From the NCBI RefSeq assembly GCF_045037415.1, contig NZ_CP173438.1: a stretch of DNA of 64,000 nt. One strand, 5' to 3'. The notes beneath the pieces were generated by a model. It made no database searches, had not been told where the DNA came from, and saw nothing but the letters and a program-made list of their open reading frames with translations. Numbering within the stretch: the first letter of the stretch is position 1; the number at the start of each line of letters is the position of its first letter. Of this stretch, positions 13,323 through 51,281 are shown one piece after another. Origin of the DNA: Escherichia coli. Lineage in GTDB: Bacteria > Pseudomonadota > Gammaproteobacteria > Enterobacterales > Enterobacteriaceae. The position numbers were made by a program, and so were the translations under genes.

Positions 13323-14315
13323 CTAATCGATGGACAGTTTATGGACACTTTCAGCCAGCGGATTAAAGTTGATCGCGTCCAGTAAAAAGTCCGGCGAAAA
13401 ATGAGCGTACGTCATTGTTTGCTGAATCGTTGCGTGCCCCAGGATTCGTTGCAACGTAACAATATTTCCGCCATTCATCATAAAGTGTGTGGCAAATGTA
13501 TGACGCATGACATGCGTAGCCTGCCCCTTCGGCAAATCCGGTTTCACCTCCTGAAGAATCTCCCGGAACTTCAGATAATCAACCTGATACAATAACCCCG
13601 TTCGACGGGTTTTAATCAGAGGCACGACCGAATCCGCCACAGGAACCGAACGGGATTTTCCGTTTTTGGTGTTAAAGAACGTCACCCGGTTGCCAACGAT
13701 ATGCTCTCCACGTAGTTCCGATGCTTCACTCCATCGGGCACCAGTAGAAAGACACAGAATGGCAACACGACGCACATCACCCTCCAGTCGCTCAAGAAGC
13801 CGTTCAATCTCATCATCAGAAAGAAAGGCCATCTCTGTGTTCTGAACTTTCAGTTTTCGTATACCGCGTACAGGGTTCGCGTTGTGAAAGACCTCAGCTT
13901 CAATCAGCACCGTGAACATGGTAGACAGTACGCATAAGTCACGATTAATACTGGACGGCATTAATCCGGCCTGTAATTTCTCTGACCGATATTCAAGCAT
14001 AAATTTTCGCGTCATCTGACTGGCGCGAGGATCTCCCATTTCACGAACAACCTTCCCTAGCCTAACCCTGTAGCTATCCCCGTAAGCCTGATTACGCCCA
14101 TCAAGCATCCACCACGCATCAAGCAGCTCTGATAATCGCCGCTGATCAGCTGGCTTAGCCTGCCATGGCTTGTCATGAAAGTTCTGTAACACATACTTCT
14201 CAAACTCCTGAGCCTTTGATTTCAGGGCAAAGATTTTTCGAATCCGCTTTCCTTCCGCCCCCTGCGGTCTGACATCGACCTGATAACGTCCGTCTTTGAG
14301 TTGCTTAATCGACAT
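13323..14315 (-). CDS. int: P2-type tyrosine integrase
   Basis: ORF 13323..14330 trimmed to MSIKQLKDGRYQVDVRP...; closely parallels the recalled P2 Int (MAIKKLDDGRYEVDIRP...), with ILCLSTGARW, HVMRHTFATHF and LGHATIQQTMTYAHF catalytic motifs. Confidence 0.9.
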   Translation of the reverse strand: MSIKQLKDGRYQVDVRPQGAEGKRIRKIFALKSKAQEFEKYVLQNFHDKPWQAKPADQRRLSELLDAWWMLDGRNQAYGDSYRVRLGKVVREMGDPRASQMTRKFMLEYRSEKLQAGLMPSSINRDLCVLSTMFTVLIEAEVFHNANPVRGIRKLKVQNTEMAFLSDDEIERLLERLEGDVRRVAILCLSTGARWSEASELRGEHIVGNRVTFFNTKNGKSRSVPVADSVVPLIKTRRTGLLYQVDYLKFREILQEVKPDLPKGQATHVMRHTFATHFMMNGGNIVTLQRILGHATIQQTMTYAHFSPDFLLDAINFNPLAESVHKLSID

Positions 14316-14384
14316 GATTAGCCCCTCCAACGGATAAATTAACTAAACACTCCTTGCGATATGTAATTCGCTCAATGTGTAGAG

Positions 14385-14726
14385 TCAGCCAACATTGCGG
14401 CCTGATCGGGGTGATTTTTGGGTAATACCGATTGAAACCTGATCGCCCTCCGACTGAATAGATCCATCAAGAGAGAGAGCCGGAGCAATCTGCCCGGCGA
14501 CAGGTAGCGTCTTATCTTTTATTAGCCACAGCATGTATTTTTCAAAGCGATCGACTTGCAGAACCGCCTCAACGATTTTTGCTCTAGCGTTCTTTTGCCC
14601 CGATTCGTAATTCCTTATGGTTGCCAAAGACAACCCAGTAATATCCGCAAACTGCTTTTGTGTTAACCCTTCCGCCTTACGTATCTGACGTAACTTTTTT
14701 GCGTAGTCTATTGACAAGATAACCAT
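14385..14726 (-). CDS. P2 C-like immunity repressor (HTH)
   Basis: ORF 14385..14780 trimmed to MVILSIDYAKKLRQIRKAEGLTQKQFADITGLSLATIRNYESGQ...; C-terminal GQIAPALS motif resembles recalled P2 C; divergent from the early operon. Confidence 0.75.
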   Translation of the reverse strand: MVILSIDYAKKLRQIRKAEGLTQKQFADITGLSLATIRNYESGQKNARAKIVEAVLQVDRFEKYMLWLIKDKTLPVAGQIAPALSLDGSIQSEGDQVSIGITQKSPRSGRNVG

Positions 14727-14830
14727 TTGAGTATTAACCTCTCGCACAAAGATAACCTTTTGGTTATCTTTACAAGCCAAAACAAACCATCACAAGGCGC
14801 GACAAGCGCACCAACGCAAGAGGATAACAA

Positions 14831-15352
14831 ATGCGGGACTTCATTGCCGATAAAGAGTTATCTGACCACCAACCACTTCAGGAAAGTGACGCACTCAGCG
14901 GATCCATTGATGCCGCCAACGACGACGAGCACGAAGAAAACAAGAAAAAGCGTTCCTACAAAAAAGGAGCGACTTTGCGGCTGGATGGTCCGATCGCCGG
15001 GCTTTGCTCTCTGGAAAAAGGCGCGGCATATATTGGGCTAACAAAATCTGCACTGCGCGTAGCCATTCATCGCGGTCAAATGCCGGGACACAAGACGCGC
15101 ACAAACCCGGAAGATGAAAACTCAGACGGAGTATGGTGGTTTAACGCCAAAGAGTGGGACAAGTTGGCTGATGAGCTACCAGAGCACGAGCCCCCAGAAT
15201 GGCACAACTGGAAAAGTTACTGGACGTATGACCGCCAGAAAAGGAAGTTCTCTCCAGCTAATAAAGAAGACTGCCAGACCATTAACGGTAAGCGAGTTTA
15301 TACAGGCAGAAGCTCAAAACTGGACCAACTCAGAAACAACAGAGGCAACTAA
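14831..15352 (+). CDS. Early HTH protein, possible Cox/excisionase-like regulator; start uncertain
   Basis: Contains helix-turn-helix-like segment AYIGLTKSALRVAIHRGQMPG; first gene divergent from the repressor. Confidence 0.4.
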   Translation: MRDFIADKELSDHQPLQESDALSGSIDAANDDEHEENKKKRSYKKGATLRLDGPIAGLCSLEKGAAYIGLTKSALRVAIHRGQMPGHKTRTNPEDENSDGVWWFNAKEWDKLADELPEHEPPEWHNWKSYWTYDRQKRKFSPANKEDCQTINGKRVYTGRSSKLDQLRNNRGN

Positions 15353-15356
15353 TCGT

Positions 15357-15779
15357 ATGAAAACAAACACGTCAGATTTCACAATAACTATTTCAAAAAA
15401 TGACCAAGCATTAATTGATAACCTGAAATACCTTGCGGAAAAACATAATAACGGACGAATTGCAATTAATTTACGACACATCACAGGAGTAACAATTGTA
15501 ACCAGTTACTGGCATCTATATCTAATCGCTAAATCAGTACTTGAAAACAAAGATTCTGTTGTCAATGGAAGAGATATAGATACTCTTCCTGCACAAATCA
15601 AACCGATAGCCTATCAATTGCGTAATCGTTTTAAAAATGAAGGTGGGATTATATTTGACTTTCCCGCAGCTGTAGCCGTGAGCTTCTCTCGGGGGGATAT
15701 ACTTCACTCATTTCGTTTTGCTCTATCAGGTGACGAGACATTATGGCAGCTAGAAGATGCCGGGAGCAGCCCGGCATAA
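15357..15779 (+). CDS. Hypothetical protein, AT-rich cargo gene
   Basis: ATG at 15357 (MKTNTSDFTITISKNDQALIDNLKYLAEKH...), about 140 aa; visibly lower GC than neighbours; no motif recognised. Confidence 0.45.
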   Translation: MKTNTSDFTITISKNDQALIDNLKYLAEKHNNGRIAINLRHITGVTIVTSYWHLYLIAKSVLENKDSVVNGRDIDTLPAQIKPIAYQLRNRFKNEGGIIFDFPAAVAVSFSRGDILHSFRFALSGDETLWQLEDAGSSPA

Positions 15780-15785
15780 ATCAAA

Positions 15786-15977
15786 TTAAAAATCAACCAG
15801 TTGTGTGACAGGTGGGTATTTACGCTGAATTTTGTCAGTTACTAACGCCAGTAATATATGAATCTCTGTGTTTAATGCGTCTTTATCACCCGTCGTTTTT
15901 ACCCTGGGAGGGTTAATGTTATCCAGAGCAGCACTAAGTTCACTCAACAAATTAACAACTTTTTTATCTTCTGACAT
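15786..15977 (-). CDS. Hypothetical small protein (63 aa), convergent with the preceding gene
   Basis: ATG at 15977 preceded by RBS aagagg; MSEDKKVVNLLSELSAALDNINPPRVKTTGDKDAL... Confidence 0.4.
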   Translation of the reverse strand: MSEDKKVVNLLSELSAALDNINPPRVKTTGDKDALNTEIHILLALVTDKIQRKYPPVTQLVDF

Positions 15978-16114
15978 GAAAACCTCTTAACAATTTAATT
16001 AAACATAAGCCAGGACCTGAACCGGCCAGTCCAAGTCCTAGACACACAAAAAAAATACCACAAATCAATACAAGGTGACACGAGTACACCTTACCGAAGG
16101 TACAGAGTTTTAAT

Positions 16115-16465
16115 ATGAAACTACAGCGCAATTCTTCACAGCAGCGCTTCCGCAACGGTGCGGAACGCCATGCTAACCGTTTCGCTACCAGTGCATCACG
16201 TAGCAACTCTCGCTACAGCCTGAGCGAAACACACGCAACGCCGGATGGCTACCCAGTAAAACAAATTGGTGAACACACTTGGCTGATTGAAAAAGCAGGA
16301 ATCGTGGTTCACAGATGCCAGCGCAACCCATTTACCGGAAACCGCATTTTTGCACTGAGCAACGGCGACAATCAGTTCGGGCAGGATTTCACATTATACG
16401 AAGCACTTCGCACGGTTGATCGTCTGCTTCACGGGCAAAGTTTTATTAAACAGGCTGATTTATAA
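16115..16465 (+). CDS. Hypothetical phage early protein
   Basis: 116-aa ORF, first gene of a co-oriented early array running to gene A. Confidence 0.45.
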   Translation: MKLQRNSSQQRFRNGAERHANRFATSASRSNSRYSLSETHATPDGYPVKQIGEHTWLIEKAGIVVHRCQRNPFTGNRIFALSNGDNQFGQDFTLYEALRTVDRLLHGQSFIKQADL

Positions 16466-16475
16466 CAGGTGCTTT

Positions 16476-16754
16476 ATGACCAAAGAGCATGCACAAGGTG
16501 TATTTATCCGTTTTATTGATTTTCGCGGTGAACTGTTATTACGCGCATCAGCCATTGACGGAGTTGTTCCATCCGAAAAAAATGCAGCTACTTACGTTTA
16601 TCTGAACGGCACGCGCCTGACCGTAGAACTTCCGTACCAGACTGTACACGAAATCATTAGCGAAGCGGAAAAAGCACGTAAGACTAATGGCGATGAACCC
16701 TATATCGAAATTATTTGTATGGATTCAGAAGCAGAAATTCAGAAAGCAGATTAA
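16476..16754 (+). CDS. Hypothetical phage early protein
   Basis: ATG 16476 (MTKEHAQGVFIRFIDFRGELLLRASAIDGV...), 92 aa. Confidence 0.45.
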   Translation: MTKEHAQGVFIRFIDFRGELLLRASAIDGVVPSEKNAATYVYLNGTRLTVELPYQTVHEIISEAEKARKTNGDEPYIEIICMDSEAEIQKAD

Positions 16755-16765
16755 AGGGCGTTGCG

Positions 16766-17008
16766 ATGGGCAAAGAATATAAAACTCTCATTAACAAAGC
16801 ACTTGAGCGTTTTTATTTTCGCTTAAGTGCATCAGGCGCTCATGCTGAACGTGCAGCCCGTGACTCATTGACCAGGGCAATCCGGAGTCTGTATGACGTG
16901 GCTTTTTACGCTGATGATCTGGATGCACTTAACGAACTTTCCGAGCTGATCTGTGCCGCAGAATGCGGGGAACATATTGAACCGTATAAGCTGGGGAATA
17001 TCGCATGA
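16766..17008 (+). CDS. Hypothetical phage early protein
   Basis: ATG 16766 (MGKEYKTLINKALERFYFRLSASGAHAERAARD...), 80 aa. Confidence 0.4.
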   Translation: MGKEYKTLINKALERFYFRLSASGAHAERAARDSLTRAIRSLYDVAFYADDLDALNELSELICAAECGEHIEPYKLGNIA

Positions 17009-18730: not shown

Positions 18731-18961
18731 ATGGCAAACCGCAAACAGCACCGCGCTATCGCGGAGCGTCGTCACATCCAGACTGAAATCAACCGCAGAC
18801 TTTCCCGCGCATCACGCGTCGCGCAAATCATGCACATCAATATGCTGCATGAGCGCAGCCACGCACTATCAAACATTTATTCCGCCTCTGTTTTCAGCTA
18901 TCTGGCGGATGATCTGCACGAGCTTCAACAGCTCATCCAGCAGCAAAACAAACTCCATTAA
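18731..18961 (+). CDS. Hypothetical phage early protein
   Basis: 76-aa ORF after a 300-bp structured noncoding stretch. Confidence 0.35.
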   Translation: MANRKQHRAIAERRHIQTEINRRLSRASRVAQIMHINMLHERSHALSNIYSASVFSYLADDLHELQQLIQQQNKLH

Positions 18962-19405: not shown

Positions 19406-22228
19406 ATGACGGCAGAGTACCTCAGGGACTGGCAACAACCGCGCCACGCAGTGGGGCGTGAAGGAACGGGGATCCCCGCTCCTGAATCCGCGCTTTCCTC
19501 CTGGCTGGATGCCTACCGGGCAGAGAACGAGCGCCGCCAGGAAATGGCTGATGCGGCGTTCTCAGCCACGCCGCTGGGCAACCTGATTAATAAAAGCCTG
19601 GACGCACAGGAAAAACAGGACAAAACCATCACACTGGCAGGAGACGCCAGAAAACAGGCACGTGGCGCGGTGGATGAAGCCATGGCCTCGCTGCGCCTGC
19701 TGCCGTCCTATCTGCGCGATCCGCTTATTCGCCACCTCTCCTTCCTGCGCAAAAAACAGGAAGCCGATCGCCGGAAAGGCAAAAAGAGCTGGCAGGCGGA
19801 ACGCTATGCACGCGGAACCCTGCGCAAAATATTCGAACGTCTGGATAGCACTGACGGACGCTGGCTGACACCGGGTTATCGCTCCCTTGCCGGACGCGAA
19901 CGCCTGGACGATTTGCTTTACCTGCCGCAGCTCAACAAACACCAGATACAGACGCTGGCCACCATGACGGCGGCGATGTTCAGCAGCACCTTCGAAAAAC
20001 TCTGCGATGGCTTTGGCGCGACCGATGGCGAGCTGACCATGGATGTAACCCTGAAGGCGTATCAGATGCTGGCCCGCATGGCGTTACACCTGCACGCCAT
20101 GCCTCCACATTATGACGCACTGACAACAGACAAAGACCGGAGGAACGAACCGGACACGGAGCTGCTGCCGGGCGCAATCCTTCGCCTGACCTGTGCGGAA
20201 TGGTGGAAACGCAAACTGTGGCTGTTACGTTGCGAGTGGAGAGAAGAACAACTCCGCGCCGCCTGTCTGGTTTCCAGAAAAACATCACCCTATCTGAGCC
20301 AGGACGCGTTAAGCGAGTTTCGCGCACAGCGCGAGAAAACACGCGATTTCCTGAAAAGTTTCATGCTGGAAAATGAAGACGGGTTCACGATTGATCTCGA
20401 GACAGTGTATTACGCGGGAGTAAGTAACCCGGTTCACCGTAAGGCAGAAATGATGGCCACCATGAAGGGACTGGAACTTCTGGCCGAAGCCCGTGGCGAC
20501 AAAGCGGTGTTTCTGACTGTCACCTGCCCGTCAAAATACCACGCCACAACGGAGAACGGTCATCCGAATCCCAAATGGAACGGGGCCACAATGCGCGACT
20601 CCAGCGATTACCTGGTTAACACGTTTTTTGCGGCGGTCCGCAAAAAACTGAACCGCGACGGCCTGCGCTGGTATGGCATCCGCACGGTGGAGCCTCATCA
20701 TGACGGCACCGTGCACTGGCATATGATGGTCTTTGCACATCCGGAAGAAATCGACACCATTGTGTCCCATACCCGCGATATTGCCATTCAGGAAGACCGC
20801 CACGAGCTGGGCAATGATATTACTCCGCGCTTTAAGGTGGAGTATGTCGACGGCTCAAAAGGCACGCCAACCAGCTACATCGCCACCTACATCGGAAAGA
20901 ACCTGGACAGCCGCGCCGTGGATGGCATCGACCCGAAAACGGGCAAGCCACGCGTGGACCACGAAACCGGAAAATCAATGGCCGAGAGCGTGGAGCGCGC
21001 CATCGGCTGGGCGCGCCTTCACCGGGTCCGTCAGTTCCAGTTCTTTGGCATCCCCTCCCGTCAGGTGTGGCGTGAACTGCGCCGCCTTGCCAGCCAGATG
21101 GCACGCAATCCGGAAGGCCCGCAACGGCTGAAAGATGATGCAATGGATGCGGTACTCGCTGCCGCCGATGCCGGGTGTTTTGCCACCTACATTGAAAAAC
21201 AGGGTGGCGTGCTTGTTCCACGCAAGGACTACCTGATTCGCACCGCCTACGACCTCGCAGATGAGCTGAACGATTACGGCGAACAGAGCGTACAGATTTA
21301 CGGGATCTGGTCACCACTCATCGGGGAATCCTCCCGTGTGTGCACGCATCCGGATAACTGGAAGCTGGTAAGACGTAAACCGGAAGCGGAAGACAGCGCC
21401 CGCGAAAATGGTTTTGACCTTCAGGGCGGCCCTGCCGCCCCTTGGACTCGTGGCAATAACTGTCCCCGTGTACAGGAAACGGACAACAACGGGACAGAAC
21501 AGCCGGAAGAACGGCCAGCACCGTGGCCGCAGCTCCCTGACGGCGTTGAAGTGAACGAATGGATGCGCTCACTGAAACGACACGAACGCCGGGCGCTGAT
21601 GCGTTCGCTTCGTGACAAACAGGCAAAAAACAGCAGCGATGAAATGCAGAGCTGGACACAGAGCCGCAAACAGCAGCGGCCTTTGCCTGATAACCACGAA
21701 TTACTCGCTAAAGAATGGCGGGAGTCTGCTGAATCTCTCGGCCTGCATATCGGTGAACAACAGATGCAGCACCTGTTACGGGGCGGCAGTCTGTACGTTG
21801 ACGGCAGCATCATTGCACCGCAGGGATTTGAAATTGTACGCAAACCGGATACCCGCCCGGACAGCCGAATCACGCAGCTCTGGCAGCGCCTGAGCCGTAA
21901 TCATGGCGTAAGCAGCACGGAGATCCGCCATAACCCGGTCGCCAGCTATCTGGCACAGCTGGGGGCATCAGACCCTGAAGCCGCCGCACGCCTGGCATCC
22001 ACACTTCAGCAGGGCCAGAACACCATGAAAACACCCGTTACCGTGCTTTCTGACATGCTGCGCGCCATCCGCGACGCAGAGCACGCACAGAGAATCAGTG
22101 AAACCACTGAACGCGCCAGCCGCAAAGCAGACCTGCTGCGGGGTGGCCTGACCAGTGGAAACAAAAAACAGACAGAAACGGGACTTACGAATCCCGTAAA
22201 TGAGCAAAAAACGCGCAGCGATATATGA
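19406..22228 (+). CDS. P2 gpA-type rolling-circle replication initiation endonuclease
   Basis: 940 aa; HxH metal motif in TVEPHHDGTVHWHMMVFAHPEE, typical of gpA/gene II Rep proteins; longer than P2 A as I recall it (about 760 aa). Confidence 0.8.
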   Translation: MTAEYLRDWQQPRHAVGREGTGIPAPESALSSWLDAYRAENERRQEMADAAFSATPLGNLINKSLDAQEKQDKTITLAGDARKQARGAVDEAMASLRLLPSYLRDPLIRHLSFLRKKQEADRRKGKKSWQAERYARGTLRKIFERLDSTDGRWLTPGYRSLAGRERLDDLLYLPQLNKHQIQTLATMTAAMFSSTFEKLCDGFGATDGELTMDVTLKAYQMLARMALHLHAMPPHYDALTTDKDRRNEPDTELLPGAILRLTCAEWWKRKLWLLRCEWREEQLRAACLVSRKTSPYLSQDALSEFRAQREKTRDFLKSFMLENEDGFTIDLETVYYAGVSNPVHRKAEMMATMKGLELLAEARGDKAVFLTVTCPSKYHATTENGHPNPKWNGATMRDSSDYLVNTFFAAVRKKLNRDGLRWYGIRTVEPHHDGTVHWHMMVFAHPEEIDTIVSHTRDIAIQEDRHELGNDITPRFKVEYVDGSKGTPTSYIATYIGKNLDSRAVDGIDPKTGKPRVDHETGKSMAESVERAIGWARLHRVRQFQFFGIPSRQVWRELRRLASQMARNPEGPQRLKDDAMDAVLAAADAGCFATYIEKQGGVLVPRKDYLIRTAYDLADELNDYGEQSVQIYGIWSPLIGESSRVCTHPDNWKLVRRKPEAEDSARENGFDLQGGPAAPWTRGNNCPRVQETDNNGTEQPEERPAPWPQLPDGVEVNEWMRSLKRHERRALMRSLRDKQAKNSSDEMQSWTQSRKQQRPLPDNHELLAKEWRESAESLGLHIGEQQMQHLLRGGSLYVDGSIIAPQGFEIVRKPDTRPDSRITQLWQRLSRNHGVSSTEIRHNPVASYLAQLGASDPEAAARLASTLQQGQNTMKTPVTVLSDMLRAIRDAEHAQRISETTERASRKADLLRGGLTSGNKKQTETGLTNPVNEQKTRSDI

Positions 22229-22304: not shown

Positions 22305-23264
22305 ATGAAAATTTGTATCGACGACGGCTCCACCAACATCAAGCTGGCATGGACTGAGAATGGCGAACGCCGCAACGCCATCAGCCCGAACAGCTTCAAG
22401 TCGGAATGGTCTGCGCCGTTCGGTGGCATGCAGCCCGCGAACTACATGCTTGATGGCGTGCGCTATGGTTTTGATCCGGTTAGCGATCGCTTTGTCCAGA
22501 CGACCGACACGCAATACCAGTACAGCGATGTGAATGTAATCGCCATTCATCACGCGCTGGTCAAATCAGGCATCACGCCACAGGAGGTGGATGTGGTTGT
22601 CACCCTGCCACTGAGCGAGTATTTCGACACAAACGCACAGCCGGACATGGCCAACATCAACCGCAAAAAAGCGAACGTTATGCGCCCGGTGGAATACCAG
22701 AACGGCGAAGCATTCACTATCCGTAACGTGCGGGTTATGCCTGAATCCATTCCGGCTGGCTTTAAAGCACTGGCTGACATGAGTCCGTTTGAATCCCTGC
22801 TGATTGTGGATTTAGGCGGAACCACGCTGGATGTGGCAAAGGTTCAAGGGCAACTGGCAGGTATCAGCCAGGTGTTTTGCGATCCACACGTAGGCGTTTC
22901 CCTGATGGCCGATGCCGTACTGTCGGTGATGGCCACTAACGGTATGCGCACCAGTCACCACATCGCCAATACCATTATCGAACATCGCCATGATGAAGCC
23001 TGGCTGCGCCAGCACATCCACAATGACGCGCATTACGCCAGCCTGATGGCGGTTATTCGTGAAAAGGAAGAAACACTGAAACAACGCGTGATCCGCTCGC
23101 TGGCGGTTTTTTCGGGTTACGGGCGGGTGATGGTTGTCGGTGGAGGGGCGGAGATTGTGGCACCCGCTATCCGCGAAGTCTGCGGAGTTAATGCGACTTT
23201 CATCGCGGACGGGGTGCCACAGTTTGCTCTGGTTAATGGGCTGTACGCAATGGACAAGGAGTAA
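22305..23264 (+). CDS. ParM/StbA-like actin-family partition ATPase
   Basis: MKICIDDGSTNIKLAW...ISPNSFKSEW...YSDVNVIAIHHAL...VVGGGAEI parallels recalled plasmid R1 ParM (MLVFIDDGSTNIKLQW...ISPNSFKREW...YSDVNVVAVHHAL...). Confidence 0.8.
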   Translation: MKICIDDGSTNIKLAWTENGERRNAISPNSFKSEWSAPFGGMQPANYMLDGVRYGFDPVSDRFVQTTDTQYQYSDVNVIAIHHALVKSGITPQEVDVVVTLPLSEYFDTNAQPDMANINRKKANVMRPVEYQNGEAFTIRNVRVMPESIPAGFKALADMSPFESLLIVDLGGTTLDVAKVQGQLAGISQVFCDPHVGVSLMADAVLSVMATNGMRTSHHIANTIIEHRHDEAWLRQHIHNDAHYASLMAVIREKEETLKQRVIRSLAVFSGYGRVMVVGGGAEIVAPAIREVCGVNATFIADGVPQFALVNGLYAMDKE

Positions 23265-23268
23265 ACCA

Positions 23269-23583
23269 ATGACGACACCAACCAGACGGATAAGTTTCTA
23301 TCTGAAGCCCGCCGCCGTCAAGAGTGAACAGGAGGCGTGCAATTACCTCGATAGCCTGCCAGCCTCCGAACGCAGCCGCGCGCAACGCGCGGCCTTTCTG
23401 GCTGGGCTAGCGCTCATAAAGCGCAACCCAGCATTTGCCTACTGGATGGCCGAATGGCCAGAGGACAACCTCCCCTTCAATACCGTTAGCATCAAGGAAA
23501 CATACCAGGATAATCAGCCTAGCGGAGTTGAATGCAATTTTTATAAAATAAAAAAGAATATTCAGACCTTATTCCCAGAATAA
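23269..23583 (+). CDS. ParR-like centromere-binding protein
   Basis: MTTPTRRISFYLKPAAV...LDSLPASERSRAQRAAFLAGLAL parallels recalled R1 ParR (RTIAFKLNPDV...LDSIPQGERSRLNRAALTAGLAL); directly follows the parM-like gene. Confidence 0.65.
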   Translation: MTTPTRRISFYLKPAAVKSEQEACNYLDSLPASERSRAQRAAFLAGLALIKRNPAFAYWMAEWPEDNLPFNTVSIKETYQDNQPSGVECNFYKIKKNIQTLFPE

Positions 23584-23666
23584 TCTGATAATTGTATGTG
23601 AACTAATAAAATACAGACCAACACATCATTCTGGCACCCTTGCTAACAGGGTGCCAATGTTTCAAA

Positions 23667-24509
23667 TCATGATGAAATTGCCGAAGTTTTTTTATCGTGC
23701 TGAAGTACCGCAAATGCCATTAAAACCTCAAGAGAATAGCGGCGATAATACTTAACAAAACCATAATAAAATACTCGGGATGCAGCAATACAAAACAAGA
23801 GAAGAAAACAAAAAGGTAACAGTCTGATATTTATATCTATTAAAAAGGATAGAAGGAGCAGGAACATAAGCAACCAGACTGAAGCGAGAAAAACAAATGT
23901 AATGTTTCTACAAAAACCATACAAAGCAACATAGTTTTGCATTTTCACCTGATGATTTTTAGAATGTTCATACACATAATGATAAGCAAGGCGAAAAAGA
24001 TCGCCCCTCAAGCCCTTACGTCGATATAGCGTAGATACAGAAAAAACATTTATATAACCATCTCGTATTTGCGGCCAAAAGACTTTAATAAGTATAGAAT
24101 GCAGTGTGGTTTTATGATGTTCTGCTTTATCAAAAGCTGATACAGGAAATAAAAAAACTCCACGAATAAAATTAACTATACTGAACTTAGTATTATGTCG
24201 TTTTATTTTCAGGGAGCTTCTTTTAGAAAACAGATAAATTGAAGGATACCCAAGTTTACTGTTCATGTATTTTTCAATTAAACAGGATGATAGAATAGAT
24301 ATGAAGTGACCTGAAATATATGATAGAACGATTAATACCACATATATAAATACACTTATTATTTCTTTATATTTCAGGATATGGTTAAGAATACCTTCTA
24401 TATAAACAGGGTTAATTTCAATAGAAAACAAAAAAAGGATAAACAGGAATAACCCACCTGGAATTAGATAGCCCAAAAAGTCATAAAATGAAAACGGATT
24501 CTGTGTCAC
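23667..24509 (-). CDS. Polytopic membrane protein (280 aa, at least 4 TM), unknown function; second gene of the AT-rich cargo operon
   Basis: GTG start with RBS aggggg; two N-terminal and two C-terminal hydrophobic helices around a basic ~130-aa loop; about 32 percent GC by eye. Confidence 0.6.
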   Translation of the reverse strand: MTQNPFSFYDFLGYLIPGGLFLFILFLFSIEINPVYIEGILNHILKYKEIISVFIYVVLIVLSYISGHFISILSSCLIEKYMNSKLGYPSIYLFSKRSSLKIKRHNTKFSIVNFIRGVFLFPVSAFDKAEHHKTTLHSILIKVFWPQIRDGYINVFSVSTLYRRKGLRGDLFRLAYHYVYEHSKNHQVKMQNYVALYGFCRNITFVFLASVWLLMFLLLLSFLIDINIRLLPFCFLLLFCIAASRVFYYGFVKYYRRYSLEVLMAFAVLQHDKKTSAISS

Positions 24510-24548
24510 ACTTCCCCCTGTGTTACTTGTAAATTAAAGGGTAAAACA

Positions 24549-25046
24549 TTATTTGTTTTTCCGTAAAGGATTAGCTTTCCATCTTCTTACTAACCATTCG
24601 AATTCTTGATATGTAGTATCCGAATTAATGCTTTCTCTGATTGCTTTAATTAATGGCTCGGCAATATCATATGTCTCTACAACTGTTGTGTAAGATGTTC
24701 TTTTTATCATTTTTTCATCATAAATACCTTCACGAATACTTACAGCAACTCGCTCGTAAAAATTTAAAATATATTGAAATTTTCGACGCTCGGCCATTTC
24801 TTCATCTGTTATTATGCAACCATCACAAGGAAAAACATAAGAACGAAATGATTTGCCTGAACGATGCACTTGTTTCAGGGTATGCAATGACTCTATATAT
24901 TGCATATCTTGCCGACTCTCAAAAAGAAAGTTGGCCGTTTGAGTTTTTTTTGCGGTACGCACATTGTAGATAATGGTTCCAATGGCAACCAAAACGCCAA
25001 GCAGAACAATAGCATTGCTGATGATTTGTAGTGTTATTGGGTTCAT
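24549..25046 (-). CDS. N-terminally membrane-anchored protein (165 aa), unknown function; first gene of the AT-rich cargo operon
   Basis: MNPITLQIISNAIVLLGVLVAIGTIIYNV (one TM) followed by a ~140-aa charged soluble domain; AT-rich. Confidence 0.6.
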   Translation of the reverse strand: MNPITLQIISNAIVLLGVLVAIGTIIYNVRTAKKTQTANFLFESRQDMQYIESLHTLKQVHRSGKSFRSYVFPCDGCIITDEEMAERRKFQYILNFYERVAVSIREGIYDEKMIKRTSYTTVVETYDIAEPLIKAIRESINSDTTYQEFEWLVRRWKANPLRKNK

Positions 25047-25057
25047 CCTATTTCATC

Positions 25058-25088
25058 CATAAAAAAGGCGGGGAGCAAATCCCCGCCT
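25058..25088 (-). terminator. Intrinsic terminator / candidate attenuator directly upstream of the 165-aa gene
   Basis: Minus strand reads ggcgggg-atttgct-ccccgcc then tttttt; the T run ends about 12 nt before the ATG at 25046. Confidence 0.55.
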
Positions 25089-25107
25089 CATTAGAGGTCA
25101 ACGTAGC

Positions 25108-25143
25108 TTAGAAACCATCAAATTCATCATACATTTTTTTCAT
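25108..25143 (-). CDS. Candidate leader peptide (11 aa, MKKMYDEFDGF)
   Basis: Strong SD gaggggg 5-6 nt upstream of the ATG; stop codon 18 nt before the terminator stem. Confidence 0.35.
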   Translation of the reverse strand: MKKMYDEFDGF

Positions 25144-25195
25144 ATCAACCCCCTCATAGAAATCATAACCACGTTTTGTGGTTTTTGTGACGTAT

Positions 25196-25224
25196 AAACT
25201 ACATCAAAGGCAAGCCACGGTCAA
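25196..25224 (-). promoter_or_regulatory. Candidate sigma-70 promoter for the leader and membrane-protein operon
   Basis: Minus strand: ttgacc, 17-bp spacer, tagttt; followed by the palindrome ccacaaaacgtgg before the leader RBS. Confidence 0.3.
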
Positions 25225-25769
25225 ATATATAGGCATGCTTACCTGCACAAAAGTGCACAAATTTGCACAATTTTTTTGAACGACTTTTTACCCTTCCGGC
25301 CCGCATGGCGGCTGGATCCGTCAAGGATCCGTGCGTGCACAAAAAAACGCGCTTTTTCTGCGCGCAGGTGACGGGGGAACAGCCCGCGTTTCAGGGGGTA
25401 AATAGCATTCCCTGAACGATGTCGCAGAGACACAACAGAATGGCCATATTTCTCACGCTGAGCATGAAAAAGGCGTGAGGGCTTTTGATTTGATGGGGTG
25501 AAAGGTAAGGCCGTCAAAATCGCACTGAGGCAGCGAGAACATGCAGTCAACGCGGTGGAATTGCGTAAGAGTCTGACCGTCGATGGTGGCGATAAACTGG
25601 AAGGCGTCGTGAAATTATCTGATTGATACAGGAGCTGGAGAGCCGGGGCATAAATTTTTTATGCCCCGGCGAAGCAGCAGACAAGCGAAGCGCGTCAGCG
25701 ATACGGCACCTTGCCGACCATACTTCATAAGTGCAAAATACGAGCAAAGAAATCAATGGAGGCTGTCTT

Positions 25770-26294
25770 ATGGTCATTAATTACAAGCAGTTAAGAGAAA
25801 AACGGGAGCAGGTAAAGGAGAGCTTTCGCCGCAATGAAGATCTGACCCCGCTTGTACGCCTTGCCCAGGGCATTGTTGATGCTTATGAAATCTCGCTGGA
25901 GCTGCCATCACAGACCTGGACAGATAGCGACGGTAATCGCCAGCATTACGTTTCATGCGGACTGGAAGCAGCCGAAGGATTTCGCAGAATGCCTTTATCC
26001 CAGATCCCTGCCGCTACCCCCAAAGCACGGGGCAGCAATGATGAGCGAAAACTGACTTTTAGTATTGAAACGGTGGTTGACGACACACCTGGCGAAGTCG
26101 CGTTCGTGCACACTCCTGTTTCGATCGCAATGTATAACGATGAAATACAGGTTCGCGTTAATAATAATATCGTGCCACTTAAAGAAGGTAATTCACCCTA
26201 CACCACCGTTTGTGAAGCCATTCAATATTACGTTCTCTCTGAAATTGATAATCTCAAGCCTGACGGCACCCAGAAAATGGTTCAACTCTGGTAA
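25770..26294 (+). CDS. Hypothetical protein (174 aa), convergent on the portal gene
   Basis: ATG 25770 with RBS ggagg; MVINYKQLREKREQVKESFRRNEDLTPLVRLAQGIVDAYE...; no motif recognised. Confidence 0.45.
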   Translation: MVINYKQLREKREQVKESFRRNEDLTPLVRLAQGIVDAYEISLELPSQTWTDSDGNRQHYVSCGLEAAEGFRRMPLSQIPAATPKARGSNDERKLTFSIETVVDDTPGEVAFVHTPVSIAMYNDEIQVRVNNNIVPLKEGNSPYTTVCEAIQYYVLSEIDNLKPDGTQKMVQLW

Positions 26295-26308
26295 AAAGGA
26301 CAGCCCCA

Positions 26309-43445: not shown

Positions 43446-43499
43446 TGGCCGTTTCTGGCCTGCATGGCATGATTTGCGCTTTTGGACGGGAGATTCAGT

Positions 43500-44099
43500 G
43501 TGCTGATTGGCTATGTAAGGGTATCAACAAATGACCAGAATACAGACCTGCAACGAAACGCTCTTGTTTGTGCAGGATGTGAACAAATATTTGAAGATAA
43601 ATTAAGCGGGACAAAGACAGACCGACCGGGATTAAAACGCGCTTTAAAGCGCCTTCAAAAAGGTGACACGCTGGTTGTCTGGAAACTGGATCGCCTCGGG
43701 CGAAGCATGAAACATCTGATTTCTCTCGTCGGGGAACTACGGGAGCGAGGGATTAATTTTCGCAGTCTGACCGACAGCATAGACACATCTTCTCCAATGG
43801 GGCGTTTTTTCTTCCACGTGATGGGTGCCCTGGCTGAAATGGAACGTGAATTAATTGTTGAACGTACACTGGCCGGGCTGGCGGCAGCGCGCGCAAGGGG
43901 GCGCACAGGCGGACGTCGACCGAAGCTGACAAAAGAACAGCATGAGCAAATAGCAAGGCTAATCAAAAACGGGCACGACAGAAAACAACTGGCAATAATT
44001 TACGGCATTGGCACATCGACGATTTATCGTTATCACCCTGTAGGCGATATACAGACTGAAGAAACAACCGGGCAGACTCAGGAAAATGAAAACCGCTAA
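43500..44099 (+). CDS. Serine DNA invertase (Gin/Pin/Cin/Hin family)
   Basis: GTG start gives MLIGYVRVSTNDQNTDLQRNALVCAGCEQIFEDKLSG..., close to recalled Gin/Pin; catalytic Ser in VRVSTNDQ. Confidence 0.85.
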   Translation: MLIGYVRVSTNDQNTDLQRNALVCAGCEQIFEDKLSGTKTDRPGLKRALKRLQKGDTLVVWKLDRLGRSMKHLISLVGELRERGINFRSLTDSIDTSSPMGRFFFHVMGALAEMERELIVERTLAGLAAARARGRTGGRRPKLTKEQHEQIARLIKNGHDRKQLAIIYGIGTSTIYRYHPVGDIQTEETTGQTQENENR

Positions 44100-44127: not shown

Positions 44128-44622
44128 TCAGAACAGCCCTTTAACTGAACTGGCCGCGCTGTTAAGAGATGATGTCACCTTATCTTTGAAGCCGGACAGC
44201 ATATCACTGAACGATGAGGATTGCAGGCGCTCCCGCAAATCCTCATCACAGCGTTCAAGAGTCAGTGAAAATTCTATCTTTTTCGCCTTACCGTAGCGAT
44301 CAAACTCGGAGCGGGTCGTATTCGTTTCAGTCAGGACATACATGCCGTAAATCTGCCCGACGCCATCAATCAAAGGCCAGGGTCGTCCTGTATACGCCTG
44401 CGTGGTCAGCAGCGACAGCGACACTTCGCCACCTGTAATTTCAGGATAAAGCACACCAGAAAGAACGATGCGATCATCACCTGCACCGATATACTGCCAG
44501 CTTGCTGAACGGTTAACGCGTTCATTTTTCACATGCCGCCAGCTTTTGTTTTGCTGTAACTGCTGATGCGGCAGCGTGCGCAGCTCAAAAACAAACATGC
44601 CGTAGATCATCATCATGGCCAT
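44128..44622 (-). CDS. Tail protein U (P2 gpU-like)
   Basis: 164 aa; ...QQLQQNKSWRHVKNERVNRSASWQYIGAGDD... parallels recalled P2 gpU. Confidence 0.8.
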   Translation of the reverse strand: MAMMMIYGMFVFELRTLPHQQLQQNKSWRHVKNERVNRSASWQYIGAGDDRIVLSGVLYPEITGGEVSLSLLTTQAYTGRPWPLIDGVGQIYGMYVLTETNTTRSEFDRYGKAKKIEFSLTLERCDEDLRERLQSSSFSDMLSGFKDKVTSSLNSAASSVKGLF

Positions 44623-44628
44623 GACTCC

Positions 44629-47472
44629 TCAATCTTTATCGTAAAAACTGCCACGCCCGGCACGGGCGCGCCGTTCCATTTCTGCCCTGACCATTTCACC
44701 GACCAGTTTCGCCAGTTCGCGGGGATTCTGCGTAACAACGTTATGCAGATGAACATGAATTTCACCACCAAATCCGGAGGCAACAGGCTCCCGGTTACGG
44801 GAAGTTACAGGAACTGATGCCACTGGAGATCGTATAGCCTCCGCCACCGGGCGGGAGCTGGCCGCAACAACAGGGACCAGCGCCGGAGGCAGCGGAGCCG
44901 GGACCACGGGTGTGATATTAATTGCGGGGGCAGGCTTACTGACCTGCGCAATCTTCCGCTCCTGCCACTCCCCACGAACAGCAAGTGCTCGGGGCAGGTT
45001 TTTAAAGACAATATCGCCGGGGCCAATGCGTTTTTTCGTCTCCTCAACCAGCTTACCTGTGTTATCAGCAATTTTGCTGAGTCTGCGCAGCGTACCGGTA
45101 TTGCTGTCTGTGAGCGGTTTATTGTCTTTGGGGTTATCACCTCCGGTGCCATTGCCATTTTCCACAGGCTTCGGCGGATTGATTTTCGCCAGGTCCCCCT
45201 GAAGCAAGGCAACCTTGTCCTGAAGAATGGCCGCACGCTGTGCGTCTTCGATTTTCTTGCGCGCCCTTTCCGCTTCATCCGGAAGCACACCAAGCTTTTC
45301 AAGTATCCACGCCAGCGTATCCAGCAACATTTTTGCAGGTGTCAGAACAAGTTGTAACGCACCGCCAAGAACGTTACCGAATATCTCGCCAGCACTGGTA
45401 CATTTATCCAGAGTTTCCTTGCTGGACTCCATCGGAGACAGCAGCGATTTAAACCAGTTAAACACCTGGCTGATCCCACTCCCGATTGCGTCAAAAACAG
45501 GACCAAACCGTTCAAAGGTTTCGCGCAACGGGGTCAGCCTTTCCATAATCCCGCTGAACACCCCGGCAAAAAATGCCCTGATGGGATCCCAGTATTTCCA
45601 GATGAGAACGGCAGCTCCGGCAAGCGCAGCCACGATAAGGCCGACCGGACTGAACAACGCCCCGATAGCGCCCCCCAGTAACGAAACGGAACCCGTCACC
45701 ATTCCCCATAGTGCTGGCAGGAGTCTGACAGCATTCATTGAACCGGTCAGGAGGGAAAAGCCAAGACGCAGTTTTGCCAGCGGGCCAGCAAGCACACCAA
45801 TAGCCAGCGACAACGAGCCAACCGTTGCAGTCATTGCCAGCAACGCACCGCCTGCTATCAGTAGCTGGCGCGTCAGTACCGGATGGGCCTGCGCCAGCGA
45901 GGTGATTTTTTCAAGCACCCGCGTGAGCCACTGCGTGACAGAACGCAGCGGACCGTCAACCAGATCACTGATGCGAATACGAAGACCTTCCCATGCGCTG
46001 TCGAGATTTTTCAGGTCCCCATCAAGATTATCGGCCATTACTTTTGCAACGCGATCGGCCTCTCCCCTTGCCCCCTGCAATTCTCTGGTCAGTTTTTGCA
46101 GCTCTCCTGAACCAGCCGCCGCAACAAGCGTCTGCAAACCAACGAACGCCTCTTCTCCGGCGATGTCCTTGAAGAAGGAAACCTGGTCCACCTGTCCGTA
46201 TTTTTGTGTCGCCTTATAGAGATCAAGCAGCACATCCTCCATCGGGCGCATTTTGCCTCTGGCGTCAGCAACTGACACCCCCAGCTCTTTCAGCGCATCA
46301 GCCGCAGCTTTTGGCGGTGATGCAAGGCGGGACAGACTTGCGCGCATGGCCGTACCAGCATCGCTTCCACGAAGACCATTATTGGCAAGCATCCCGGCCA
46401 TGGCTGCCGCTTCTTCAAGACTGATACCAAGTTTTGCGGCAACCGGACCGGTATACTTCATGGTTTCGCCCAGCGCGCGTAAATCAGTATTGGTCCGGGT
46501 GAATGCCGCTGTCAGCGTATCGCCAACCCGGTCCATTTGATCGGCTGTCAGGTTGAACTGTGTGAGGATATTGGAGCCTATATCAGCCGTCTCGCCGAGT
46601 TCGACGCCACCTGCCAGCGCCATATTAAGAACACCGGGCAATGCGGCCTGAATGGCCTGCGGAGTAAAACCAGCCATTGCCAGAAAGCTCTGCCCACTGG
46701 CGGCATCACTCGCAGTAAACTGTGTTTCAGAGCCAAGTTTTAACGCCTGCTCACGCAGCGCCTTAAACTGCGGGCTGTTTTTGTCGATTCGCGTCAGCGC
46801 CTGAACGCGGGACATCTCTTTGCCGAACCCGATCGCGGGCTGCAAAAAACGCCCGGCAGCATAGCCGCCCGCCGCTGCCGCACCAATTGCCAGCGCACCA
46901 CCTGTTTTCAGTTTTCCCGCGGTTTCCTGCGCGCGCGAATACCGCTCACGAGCCTGCGTTACACGCGCAAGCGCCTGCCGTTCGCGTTCAAGCTGGTTGT
47001 TGTATTGTTCGGTGCGTCTGATGGCCTGCTGGATGGTGTTATCGCTGCCTGTCAGGGAAATGCCGTGGCGTTTCAGTTCTCCGCCAAGCTCCCGCATTTT
47101 CTGAATTTCCCGTGTGCGCGATTCATTCAGGCGTTCAAGCCGGGTGCTTAACTGCTGCATCAGCTTTTGTTGTTTTTCGCTGAGCACTGTACCCGTGCGT
47201 TGTAACTGATTAAGGGCGTTAAGCTGGCGTCGTGCTTTCACGATACCCGCATCCGCTTTACTGACAGCGTCGCGGGCGCGCTCAAATGAACGCGCCTGAC
47301 GCTCGAGATTTTTGATCGCCCCCTGCGTTCGCTGAATGGAGTCACCAAACTGCCCCATCAGGCGGCGGGCGTTTTCGGCAGGCCGGGTCAGCCTGTCAAC
47401 GGCGCTGAAAGCGACCCGGATGTCAAGAGTCTTCATTATCTGCATTCCCGCTGCGAAGTGCCGCCCGCTCAC
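44629..47472 (-). CDS. Tail tape measure protein (P2 gpT-like)
   Basis: 947 aa, Ala/Gly-rich with coiled-coil N-terminal region and hydrophobic centre; downstream of E/E'. Confidence 0.85.
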   Translation of the reverse strand: MSGRHFAAGMQIMKTLDIRVAFSAVDRLTRPAENARRLMGQFGDSIQRTQGAIKNLERQARSFERARDAVSKADAGIVKARRQLNALNQLQRTGTVLSEKQQKLMQQLSTRLERLNESRTREIQKMRELGGELKRHGISLTGSDNTIQQAIRRTEQYNNQLERERQALARVTQARERYSRAQETAGKLKTGGALAIGAAAAGGYAAGRFLQPAIGFGKEMSRVQALTRIDKNSPQFKALREQALKLGSETQFTASDAASGQSFLAMAGFTPQAIQAALPGVLNMALAGGVELGETADIGSNILTQFNLTADQMDRVGDTLTAAFTRTNTDLRALGETMKYTGPVAAKLGISLEEAAAMAGMLANNGLRGSDAGTAMRASLSRLASPPKAAADALKELGVSVADARGKMRPMEDVLLDLYKATQKYGQVDQVSFFKDIAGEEAFVGLQTLVAAAGSGELQKLTRELQGARGEADRVAKVMADNLDGDLKNLDSAWEGLRIRISDLVDGPLRSVTQWLTRVLEKITSLAQAHPVLTRQLLIAGGALLAMTATVGSLSLAIGVLAGPLAKLRLGFSLLTGSMNAVRLLPALWGMVTGSVSLLGGAIGALFSPVGLIVAALAGAAVLIWKYWDPIRAFFAGVFSGIMERLTPLRETFERFGPVFDAIGSGISQVFNWFKSLLSPMESSKETLDKCTSAGEIFGNVLGGALQLVLTPAKMLLDTLAWILEKLGVLPDEAERARKKIEDAQRAAILQDKVALLQGDLAKINPPKPVENGNGTGGDNPKDNKPLTDSNTGTLRRLSKIADNTGKLVEETKKRIGPGDIVFKNLPRALAVRGEWQERKIAQVSKPAPAINITPVVPAPLPPALVPVVAASSRPVAEAIRSPVASVPVTSRNREPVASGFGGEIHVHLHNVVTQNPRELAKLVGEMVRAEMERRARAGRGSFYDKD

Positions 47473-47586
47473 GCCAGCTAACCACTTCGCCGGGCGTCAT
47501 CATGAAGATTTCGGCGGGCGACCAGTTGAAAATGGCGGCAATATCCGCCACCAGATCTTCGATGTGCTCAAAGCACACCAGGGTGA

Positions 47587-47961
47587 TTACGCTGCCGTCT
47601 CCTGCACGCTCTTCGCGCCAGAGTCTGGCTCGCTCATAAAATTTACAGCCACAGCGCACAACTGAATAAAATCGCGTGACGACATTTTTTTAATCATCAC
47701 TTCATCCAGTCGTGGCGAGGTCACGCGAGGCAACAGCGTGAACATGGTATCCGCTTTCAGATTCAGCACATCAGACAGCGACAGACCACGCAGGGATCCC
47801 GCCTGCTCAATAGCCCCGGTGATCTCCACATATGTGATTTTTTCGGCACCACGCTCAATTGGCCGGGAAAGTTTTACACCACGTTCGACAGCCATATCCT
47901 CACCTGACGTCACATCATCCGCTACGGTGTTATTCCGGGTTTCAGTATCGATATCTTTCAT
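47587..47961 (-). CDS. Tail assembly chaperone E (P2 gpE-like) with overlapping -1 frame E' extension (47423..47659)
   Basis: 124-aa ORF whose 3' end overlaps a -1 frame ORF running into T; A7 run at about 47685..47691 near the start of the shared window. Confidence 0.7.
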   Translation of the reverse strand: MKDIDTETRNNTVADDVTSGEDMAVERGVKLSRPIERGAEKITYVEITGAIEQAGSLRGLSLSDVLNLKADTMFTLLPRVTSPRLDEVMIKKMSSRDFIQLCAVAVNFMSEPDSGAKSVQETAA

Positions 47962-48016
47962 CAGTTGTCTCCTTTTCAGTCAGAGGCGACGCACTGCGCC
48001 GCCTGCATATTACTTA

Positions 48017-48529
48017 TCAGCCAAGCCCAAGCGCGGAACGAATGCGGTCAGGCACAATGTCCTTGCCGTCCTTCCGGTAGATGTGGTTCAACAGGTCGAT
48101 TTCCCACAGCGGGCGATCGTTAACGCTCAGCTTGTAGTAGGTGTTTTTGACAGCGTAAGTGTGTGATGTGGCTTCGCCCTGTTTGGCCTCCCCCATATCA
48201 ATTTCCGTCACACGCCCGCGCATCTCGATTTCATACAGATCGCTTTCTGCATCGGTGTAATATTCACCCGCAAAACGCAGCAGCGTGCCGTCAATCGTGC
48301 CGCCATACTTAAGGAACAGTGCACGAACAGCTCCCCCCATGACAAAGCTCGCATCAAGCGCGGAGTCGTCCAGACCGAGATCAATACTTACTGCTCCCAT
48401 CATGCCACCACCACGATAGCTGTCGGTTTTGCGCGTCAGTTTGGGCGGCGTGACGGATGTCACTTTACCCACTTCGTTTTCACCATCCACAAACAACGTA
48501 AAAAAGCGAAGATGTTTTGGTACAGCCAT
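48017..48529 (-). CDS. Tail tube protein (P2 gpFII-like)
   Basis: 170 aa (P2 FII is 172); position between sheath and E. Confidence 0.85.
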   Translation of the reverse strand: MAVPKHLRFFTLFVDGENEVGKVTSVTPPKLTRKTDSYRGGGMMGAVSIDLGLDDSALDASFVMGGAVRALFLKYGGTIDGTLLRFAGEYYTDAESDLYEIEMRGRVTEIDMGEAKQGEATSHTYAVKNTYYKLSVNDRPLWEIDLLNHIYRKDGKDIVPDRIRSALGLG

Positions 48530-49713: not shown

Positions 49714-49870
49714 AGCTTCAGCCCCTTGTATCCGTTAAATGATTCGGCAACAATCATCACCCACCACGCGCGTAATCTCACCCCTGCGCCGTTCTCCCGC
49801 CACGGCGACAACAAAAAGCAGTAACCCCCTCCGCACGCACATGCGACCATGCCGCACAGGGAGGGAGCAG

Positions 49871-51020: not shown

Positions 51021-51281
51021 ATGTTCCGTTGTCCGCTTTGTGGCGCATCTGCCCGTATCCGCACCAGTCGTCCGGAAAATGATTCAAACACCGTGCGGCA
51101 AAAGTATTACCAGTGTAACAATCTGGAATGCGGCGTATGCTTCTCAACACTGGAAGCTTTCCATAAATTCACATCAAAACACGCCTCCGGCGTTCACTCT
51201 TCAGAAGGTATCCCGTGGCATGATCTGCCAGCTTCACACAGGGGAAACAATCAGATGAGTTTGCCTTTATCTCAGAATTAA
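51021..51281 (+). CDS. ogr: Ogr/Delta-type zinc-finger late transcription activator
   Basis: MFRCPLCGASARIRTSR...YYQCNNLECGVCF has the CxxC...CxxxxC pattern and parallels recalled P2 Ogr. Confidence 0.8.
   Translation: MFRCPLCGASARIRTSRPENDSNTVRQKYYQCNNLECGVCFSTLEAFHKFTSKHASGVHSSEGIPWHDLPASHRGNNQMSLPLSQN

Follow-up and report, generated by a model that had tools for sequence, protein, structure and literature searches.

A conserved convergent gene pair in a variable slot of the early operon of a P2-like Escherichia coli prophage

The DNA analyzed here, called the window below, is a stretch of 64,000 nucleotides of an Escherichia coli chromosome (contig NZ_CP173438.1). It contains a prophage of about 38 kb, P2-like and related to P88/Xuanwuvirus (Peduoviridae), which adjoins dmsA and ends near ogr, hok and serS. 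Directly behind cox, the first gene of the early operon of this prophage, two small genes designated A and B are placed end to end on opposite strands. The segment carrying them is an accessory cassette, exchangeable among related prophages and dispensable for prophage carriage, and comparison of its divergent relatives showed that A and B are real genes, always paired, always convergent and diverging in step. The coordinates of the genes and signals discussed are collected in Table 1.

The cox gene forms the left flank of the cassette, and the start codon of A lies 4 nt past the cox stop codon. The pair is followed on the plus strand by the early genes for DUF4761, DUF4754, a MarR-like protein and others, up to gpA. 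A preliminary description of the locus, made from the sequence, had reported a 140-aa plus-strand and a 63-aa minus-strand open reading frame (ORF) converging with a 6-bp gap, the latter with a strong ribosome-binding site; both ORFs were said to be AT-rich in comparison to their neighbours and inserted in an otherwise co-directional early operon. The coordinates and the AAGAGG motif in front of B were confirmed. The GC content is 0.39 for A and 0.37 for B in comparison to 0.52 for the window, and a 300-nt GC profile stays at 0.36-0.42 over positions 15250-16150 with values of about 0.5 on either side. B is also the sole minus-strand gene within the early operon, all its neighbours from cox (14831) to gpA being on the plus strand.

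Table 1. Genes and sequence signals at the A/B locus (window positions unless a locus handle is given)
Feature	Coordinates	Strand	Remarks
int	13323-14330	-	left prophage end
C-type helix-turn-helix repressor gene	14385-14780	-	
long Cox-family gene (cox), 173 aa	14831-15352	+	PHROG 23196, E 1e-116; RefSeq 'Cox family DNA-binding protein'
variable cassette, ~743 bp, AT-rich	15353 to ~16095		homology breaks versus sibling prophages
gene A, 140 aa	ATG 15357 to TAA 15779	+	RefSeq hypothetical protein WP_000856387.1
gap between A and B stop codons, 6 bp	15780-15785		no space for a terminator
gene B, 63 aa	ATG 15977 to stop 15786	-	RefSeq hypothetical protein WP_001287828.1
Shine-Dalgarno sequence of B, AAGAGG	15988-15983	-	5 nt before ATG, strong; AAGGAA in relatives
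hairpin in the B leader, 14-bp stem	16041-16010	-	a few nt after the predicted transcript start
predicted extended -10 of B, TGTGGTATTTT	16062-16052	-	-10 hexamer TATTTT at 16057-16052
-35-like hexamer GTGTCA, 4/6 match	16081-16076	-	18-nt spacer; read by eye, weak
DUF4761 gene	16115-16465	+	right flank, next early gene
gpA replication gene	19406-22228	+	end of the early-gene run
68-aa predicted membrane ORF (WP_000203251/WP_000203261)	L003 3033-3239; L005 2193-2399		post-cox slot of prophages without A/B

Alignment with sibling prophages showed that homology ends at the cox stop codon and restarts about 20 nt before the DUF4761 start. The prophage of strain EC361 has the same int, C and cox genes and the same dmsA site, but carries in this slot about 330 bp with a 68-aa membrane ORF, and the slot of NIID080884 also comprises about 330 bp with the same ORF. 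In phage P88 the slot is empty and the DUF4761 gene directly follows cox. A further variant was found in E. coli PRO_A-1504-6M-A, where a clean 688-bp deletion, equivalent to window positions 15350-16037 (L048 2440-2600), takes out the cox stop codon, A, B and the leader hairpin of B, keeps a remnant of the B promoter and fuses cox to this remnant, lengthening Cox to 185 aa. The accessory status of A/B follows from these alternative or empty slots in siblings, from the natural deletion in one strain and from the AT-richness of the segment. Since the DNA between 15353 and ~16095 is replaced or absent in close relatives, the word "inserted" used in the preliminary description is justified.

Among 5426 complete E. 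coli genomes an 821-bp region covering the pair was present in 271 (~5%), in 254 of them at an identity of at least 99%. The carriers are mainly strains of the pandemic sequence type 131 (ST131) and also include UTI89, an enterotoxigenic (ETEC) strain and an O121 strain; three phage records carry the region as well. The C/cox type of the window occurs in about 300 E. coli genomes, 269 of them with the cassette, a count inflated by the clonal sampling of ST131. The DUF4761 gene is conserved more widely, in some 1350 E. coli genomes, whether or not these also carry A and B.

A word-indexed search of 5.8 billion proteins returned near-identical copies of A and B only. An exhaustive phmmer scan of 1.84 billion cluster representatives gave one distant relative of A, P0014 (138 aa, 33% identity), whose gene lies behind int, repressor and cox genes in a P2-like prophage of Salmonella; a 62-aa ORF with 40% identity to B comes next, in convergent orientation. 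Another match, to the repeat protein P0015 (1073 aa, E 7e-5), covers a short local stretch and was taken as spurious. With profile searches and scans of IMG/VR the set was extended to 11 independent divergent loci, including the window, and one duplicate contig (both proteins of L035 match those of L019 at 99-100% identity). The preliminary description had allowed for both ORFs being without homologues; ten other divergent loci are now at hand.

All 11 loci lie in P2-like prophages of E. coli and Salmonella, and in all of them A on the plus strand and B on the minus strand converge end to end. Protein identity between the ten other loci and the window copies is 20-39%, and the pairwise minimum across loci is 20% for A and 26% for B. 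The A proteins have 131-149 aa and the B proteins, as called, 59-70 aa. The stop codons overlap by 4 nt in most loci and by 22-31 nt in two, and are separated by 4-6 bp in the rest (4 bp in L037 and L042). The reading frames were intact in all loci examined, which fall into four deeply diverged subtypes. The motifs shared across loci are ..ED.ALL..L..L near the N-terminus, T.Y and F(S/N)..(D/E)(L/I)L..(Y/F)R in A, and an N-terminal M-N/S-E-D-x-K..LL....AL (MNEDEKII.LL....AL) and K-Y-P near the C-terminus in B. The whole family amounts to no more than 16 clusters, every one of them from E. coli or Salmonella enterica and annotated as hypothetical, and no relative turned up in two scans of the GTDB species-representative genomes. 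The cassette is carried by several Salmonella serovars, and the family is sporadic at the strain level.

The possibility that A and B are chance ORFs in AT-rich filler and have no function was considered in the light of these data. It could draw on the lack of a database family and on the low diversity within E. coli, where alleles of A and B differ by 1-4 substitutions per gene, too few to gauge selection (the ratio of nonsynonymous to synonymous rates is uninformative). Against it stand the protein conservation over four deeply diverged subtypes, the intact frames, the absence of a pseudogene flag on A or B in any E. coli record listed or fetched, and the conservation of the start, the Shine-Dalgarno sequence and the promoter elements. 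The comparative data effectively refute this explanation, which is regarded as extremely improbable.

In comparison to the pair itself, its surroundings are shuffled. Integrases, attachment sites, repressors and cox types vary between loci, 0-4 small ORFs lie between the repressor gene and A depending on the locus, and the downstream gene encodes DUF4761, or a 259-292-aa protein, or is an ORF of 80, 152 or 223 aa. Locus L040 combines the A/B type of L006 with the promoter/leader type of L019, which places the recombination breakpoints outside the A/B pair. A hydrophobic mini-ORF of 37-39 aa (MYDLKNLCIDILAIIAIACLSTVLMAATIKFIITYLF) was observed directly upstream of A in several Salmonella loci, namely L006 (5877-5990), with equivalents in L019, L035, L038 and L041. 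In L032 and L031 it is reduced to the final ~50 nt, a sign of a recombination boundary, and the window lacks it.

Neither A nor B was seen alone among the loci found. The identity matrices of the two proteins are congruent (Mantel r 0.93, p 1e-4), and the A and B subtypes match perfectly. This constant co-occurrence and the parallel divergence support, at the level of sequence comparison, the view of A and B as a functional unit. The same data bear on the possibility that A and B are two independent passengers, A being an early gene for host takeover or anti-defence and B an unrelated lysogenic-conversion gene. The position of A, second in the early operon, is typical of anti-defence or takeover genes, and B has a predicted promoter of its own, but the preservation of both genes in the same end-to-end geometry in 11 of 11 divergent loci despite the shuffled surroundings, the lack of single genes and the matching subtypes all speak against independence. 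This explanation is considered quite unlikely.

Both proteins are predicted to be soluble, with grand average of hydropathy (GRAVY) values of -0.17 to -0.63. The isoelectric point (pI) of A is 6.9 in the window and 5.2-6.9 in 10 of the 11 members; B is acidic, with a pI of 5.6 in the window and 4.5-5.7 in the family. AlphaFold2, run on single sequences, modelled B as a two-helix hairpin with a predicted local distance difference test (pLDDT) score of 68; the model of A (pLDDT 42) was unusable. A BLASTP self-match and an hhalign comparison of the N-terminal with the C-terminal half of A (P 8e-4 over 46 columns) are suggestive, but only suggestive, of an internal duplication of a helix-strand-strand-helix unit.

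No match was found in PHROGs, PADLOC, NCBIfam or Pfam for the window pair or for nine or ten of the relatives, and PADLOC-DB 2.0 gave 0 matches at E <= 1 for 11 proteins. Weak matches to DUF1408 (E 0.07), IL4 and DAP3 were inconsistent across members and were discarded. PDB sequence profiles gave nothing meaningful for A or B, Foldseek found no match of the B model in PDB and BFVD, and no DNA-binding domain of Pfam or NCBIfam was matched by either protein. The profile and structure searches proposed in the preliminary description gave no match to a described family or structure. That description had also considered that the ORFs might be homologous to standard early regulators of P2/186-type phages; when the A and B profiles were run with hmmsearch --max against all P2/186 early-region ORFs (including Cox/Apl, CII, Fil, Dhr, Orf78, B and Tum), nothing was obtained below E = 1. 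In the literature the protein accessions of A and B are unmentioned, and a paper on ST131 prophages and tailocins holds no data on the two genes.

The region upstream of B contains a predicted promoter with an extended -10 element. Extended -10 promoters do not need a -35 element and are typically activator-independent. In the alignment of 105 nt upstream of B the motif TGTGnTAnnTT was invariant in 11 of 11 loci, its distance to the ATG being about 62-68 nt, and the window sequence around it could otherwise not be aligned with the other loci. Counting both strands, the 64-kb window (128 kb) has just 3 copies of the motif. An A8 run at 16048-16055, between the -10 element and the leader hairpin, varies in length among E. 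coli alleles, being A6 in UTI89 and ETEC1701 and A7 in the 720632 allele, so that the promoter-hairpin distance changes.

The hairpin in the B leader includes G-U pairs and folds as minus-strand RNA only, with -21.8 kcal/mol (z -2.4) on the minus strand vs -7.8 kcal/mol (z -0.5) on the plus strand. In the 720632 allele one of the G-U pairs is replaced by A-U. A hairpin is present at the same position in all relatives with a different sequence, and that of the window is not alignable column by column. The L006 and L032 types have stable leader hairpins of other sequence (z -3.4 and -4.7), whereas in the L019 and L038 types the stem is shorter (CCCGT/ACGGG) and the whole-leader fold is no better than shuffled sequence (z +0.25 and -0.47). 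A U-rich stretch follows the window hairpin, which was marked as terminator-like; its possible roles are mRNA stabilisation and partial attenuation. An Rfam scan of 14300-17000 gave no RNA family.

Two candidate controls of the B promoter were rejected. A perfect 10-bp inverted repeat, AAAGATAACC-TTTT-GGTTATCTTT, is located at 14748-14771, at the start of the C gene and just upstream of the C-cox intergenic switch region, and is a candidate operator for C or Cox; no copy of it lies in the B promoter region, which argues against control of B by the C repressor. Control by LexA was dismissed since no CTG-N10-CAG box was seen by eye near the B promoter.

The window shows no separate promoter for A. 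In P2 the early lytic promoter Pe is shut off by the C repressor in the lysogen, as is well established and also given in the P2 annotation. No intrinsic terminator was found within or between A and B on either strand, none between A and the next plus-strand gene and, leftward of B, none on the minus strand before cox, Pe or C. The geometry of the two genes thus forces their predicted transcription units to overlap. The untranslated gap to the next plus-strand gene, consisting of the antisense of B and the leader, amounts to 296-348 nt in every locus. In the L019-type loci this next gene starts about 12 nt from the -35 region of B, which leaves no space for a separate plus-strand promoter. Since no terminator was found and several relatives have no space for a new promoter, the early transcript probably must read through the antisense of B. 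The earlier statement that the minus-strand gene interrupts the early transcript was therefore too strong. A Rho-dependent polarity site in the untranslated gap was also considered and rejected, the C/G bias being inconsistent (0.96-1.31).

Such an arrangement could be an RNA-based addition to the lysis-lysogeny switch, in which the leftward B RNA would run antisense through A and cox towards C and int, damping early expression or boosting the repressor, with A as a CII-like controller. In favour of this are the leftward promoter inside the early operon, the absence of a minus-strand terminator before cox, Pe or C, the leftward pE located close by, inside the early region, in phage 186 and the general use of convergent promoters by P2-type switches. 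However, B is kept as a protein, with motifs retained at 26-40% identity, A and B are acidic or neutral with no match to a helix-turn-helix or other DNA-binding domain, and the A profile does not match CII, Apl, Fil, Dhr or Tum of 186 or Orf78 and B of P2. Moreover, L040 pairs one A/B type with the promoter region of another, against a sequence-specific tie between A and that promoter, and siblings with the same C/cox switch manage without the cassette. This explanation is judged very unlikely.

As with pR/pL and pE of 186, a leftward promoter (here predicted) lies downstream of an early gene and the units face each other with no terminator between them. In phage lambda the OOP RNA acts antisense against cII, and the leftward transcript of the A/B locus would similarly overlap the 3' end of a rightward early gene. 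Unlike the convergent control in 186 and lambda, the leftward transcript of the locus codes for a conserved protein, B; neither a CII-like activator nor an operator common to B and the immunity switch was found, and the module is optional with the same switch. It differs from the CII/pE module of 186 or the PRE module of lambda also in the absence of a DNA-binding match, in the extended -10 of its promoter and in the L040 exchange, which swaps the promoter type and not the A type.

Another possibility is that A and B form a toxin-antitoxin (TA) or abortive-infection pair, with A as the toxic effector and B as a protein antitoxin, which would stabilise the prophage or kill cells infected by other phages. 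The size and charge pattern (a small acidic partner and a larger second protein), the strict co-occurrence and the co-divergence would fit such a pair, as would the location of the cassette in a prophage region where defence systems occur and the separation of the B promoter from the lytic operon, which makes continuous production of B possible. A convergent 3' overlap is also known from some type I loci (TxpA/RatA). On the other hand, the genes are convergent in 11 of 11 loci and do not form the co-transcribed operon of type II, IV, V and VI systems, A is not basic (10 of 11 members, pI as given above), and no TA or defence profile of Pfam, NCBIfam or PADLOC was matched by the window pair and nine relatives. 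In particular, no known toxin or antitoxin superfamily of type II is represented. A type I system would combine a small hydrophobic peptide with a non-coding antisense RNA; neither A nor B is such a peptide, and a conserved protein takes the place of the RNA. A should in addition be silent in the lysogen, where Pe is repressed, so that B would have nothing to neutralise. The viability of the strain with both genes deleted is neutral in this respect. The TA explanation is unlikely.

The reading that is preferred, at a confidence of about even, is that the convergent genes constitute a self-contained two-gene accessory cassette in which B is an effector or inhibitor of the lysogenic state and A its early counter-partner. 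A would be made from Pe and be silent in the lysogen; its expression from Pe is suggested by the start 4 nt after cox and the lack of an own promoter. B would be transcribed leftward from its own constitutive promoter and would thus be a gene of the lysogenic state. The two transcripts would be antisense to each other and should lower each other by polymerase collision and antisense pairing, as convergent promoters do in the 186 and P2 switches and OOP RNA does with cII, giving two states, the lysogen with B on and A off, and the lytic cycle with A on and B overridden. Most likely the proteins target each other or have a single target in common, as the strict pairing and the co-divergence of small proteins with no recognisable DNA-binding domain suggest, and the activity of B may be neutralised by A during lytic growth of the phage itself. 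The role of the cassette would probably lie in phage-phage conflict or host control.

Several points weigh against this reading. Co-divergence is expected for any tightly linked gene pair and is no proof of interaction, and A and B have no homology to any defence, anti-defence or regulatory family. The -35 element of the B promoter is poor, and the leader hairpin is terminator-like, so many B transcripts may end before the ORF. Finally, the B promoter, its transcription start and the mutual interference are all predictions.

A more specific version of the preferred reading, possible though less likely than not, is a new two-protein system forming a convergent toggle, in which the small acidic B, present only in the lysogen, would act in exclusion of or defence against incoming phages or satellites or lock a host or phage function. 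A would be a dedicated neutraliser that comes on with the lytic promoter of the prophage, the transcription from which would also silence B; this would amount to a defence module with self-immunity or a state-sensing module within a P2-type switch. As a general tendency, defence genes are active in lysogeny whereas anti-defence genes are expressed at an early stage of infection, and the interval between int and gpA is a minor defence hotspot of P2-like prophages, with 8% of their systems. A B effector with an A counter-function, as in the preferred reading, would fit both the defence-in-lysogeny, counter-function-early rule and this minor hotspot.

In logic only, the proposed arrangement resembles BstA/aba, in which a lysogen-expressed factor is combined with a phage element that spares the phage's own lytic cycle. 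The SieB/Esc pair of P22 follows the same self-immunity logic. A and B have no sequence or structural similarity to either system.

The cassette also resembles the P2 morons tin, old and Z/fun in being AT-rich accessory DNA, present or absent among close relatives, with a (here predicted) promoter of its own, and tin and old are likewise minus-strand lysogenic-conversion genes convergent with the early operon. The preliminary description had proposed an independently regulated moron, which is supported for B, given the variable slot and the conserved promoter-like element; for A no own promoter is present in the window. Its more specific suggestions, a TA-like pair, an anti-repressor or defence cargo, received no positive support from the profile searches. 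Unlike the P2 morons, the cassette immediately follows cox within the early operon, away from the gpA-portal and tail-gene hotspots, it pairs one gene of the lytic transcript with one antisense gene and has no flanking terminator, and its products show no homology to tin, old, fun or any PADLOC family.

The novelty of the locus lies in this unusual position, inside the early operon and outside the classical P2 hotspots, in the equally unusual architecture of one lytic and one antisense gene, and in two protein families with no described relatives. As the two classical hotspots are those mined for defence, the cassette would have been missed by hotspot-based screens. Its layout offers a compact and easily testable case of how partner proteins could be confined to mutually exclusive prophage states. 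If it is a defence/self-immunity pair or a lysogeny lock, it would represent a new architecture among prophage accessory systems; otherwise it still gives a clean example of a moron lying within an essential operon, one that the early transcript apparently must read through.

Other features of the prophage were noted in the course of the analysis. Further along the early region, a 76-aa plus-strand ORF (18731-18961, WP_000013455.1) takes the position annotated as "derepression protein" in sibling L047, beside an "ash family" pseudogene; these are P4-like functions of anti-repressor type inside a P2-like early region. The gpA-to-portal hotspot (~22305-26300) encodes a ParM-like segregation protein, a partition/stability protein, a 280-aa hypothetical protein and a DUF4760 protein, which suggests a partition module of plasmid type rather than a recognised defence system.

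A DNA-invertase-like recombinase gene (43482-44099) is located beside tail-fibre cassettes. The block from the tail sheath gene to gpU (44128-49713) runs on the minus strand, against the gpD-like ORF at 49739-50980 (+) and against the canonical P2 order. According to a 2024 preprint, an invertase and the inversion of adjacent genes are common in this P2 hotspot. In RefSeq gpD is truncated and one tail-fibre gene is partial, so that in this lineage the prophage may have undergone rearrangement or lost function. At the right prophage end, adjoining serS, an ogr/delta zinc-finger gene is followed by a toxin gene of the Hok/Gef family (~51021-51613).

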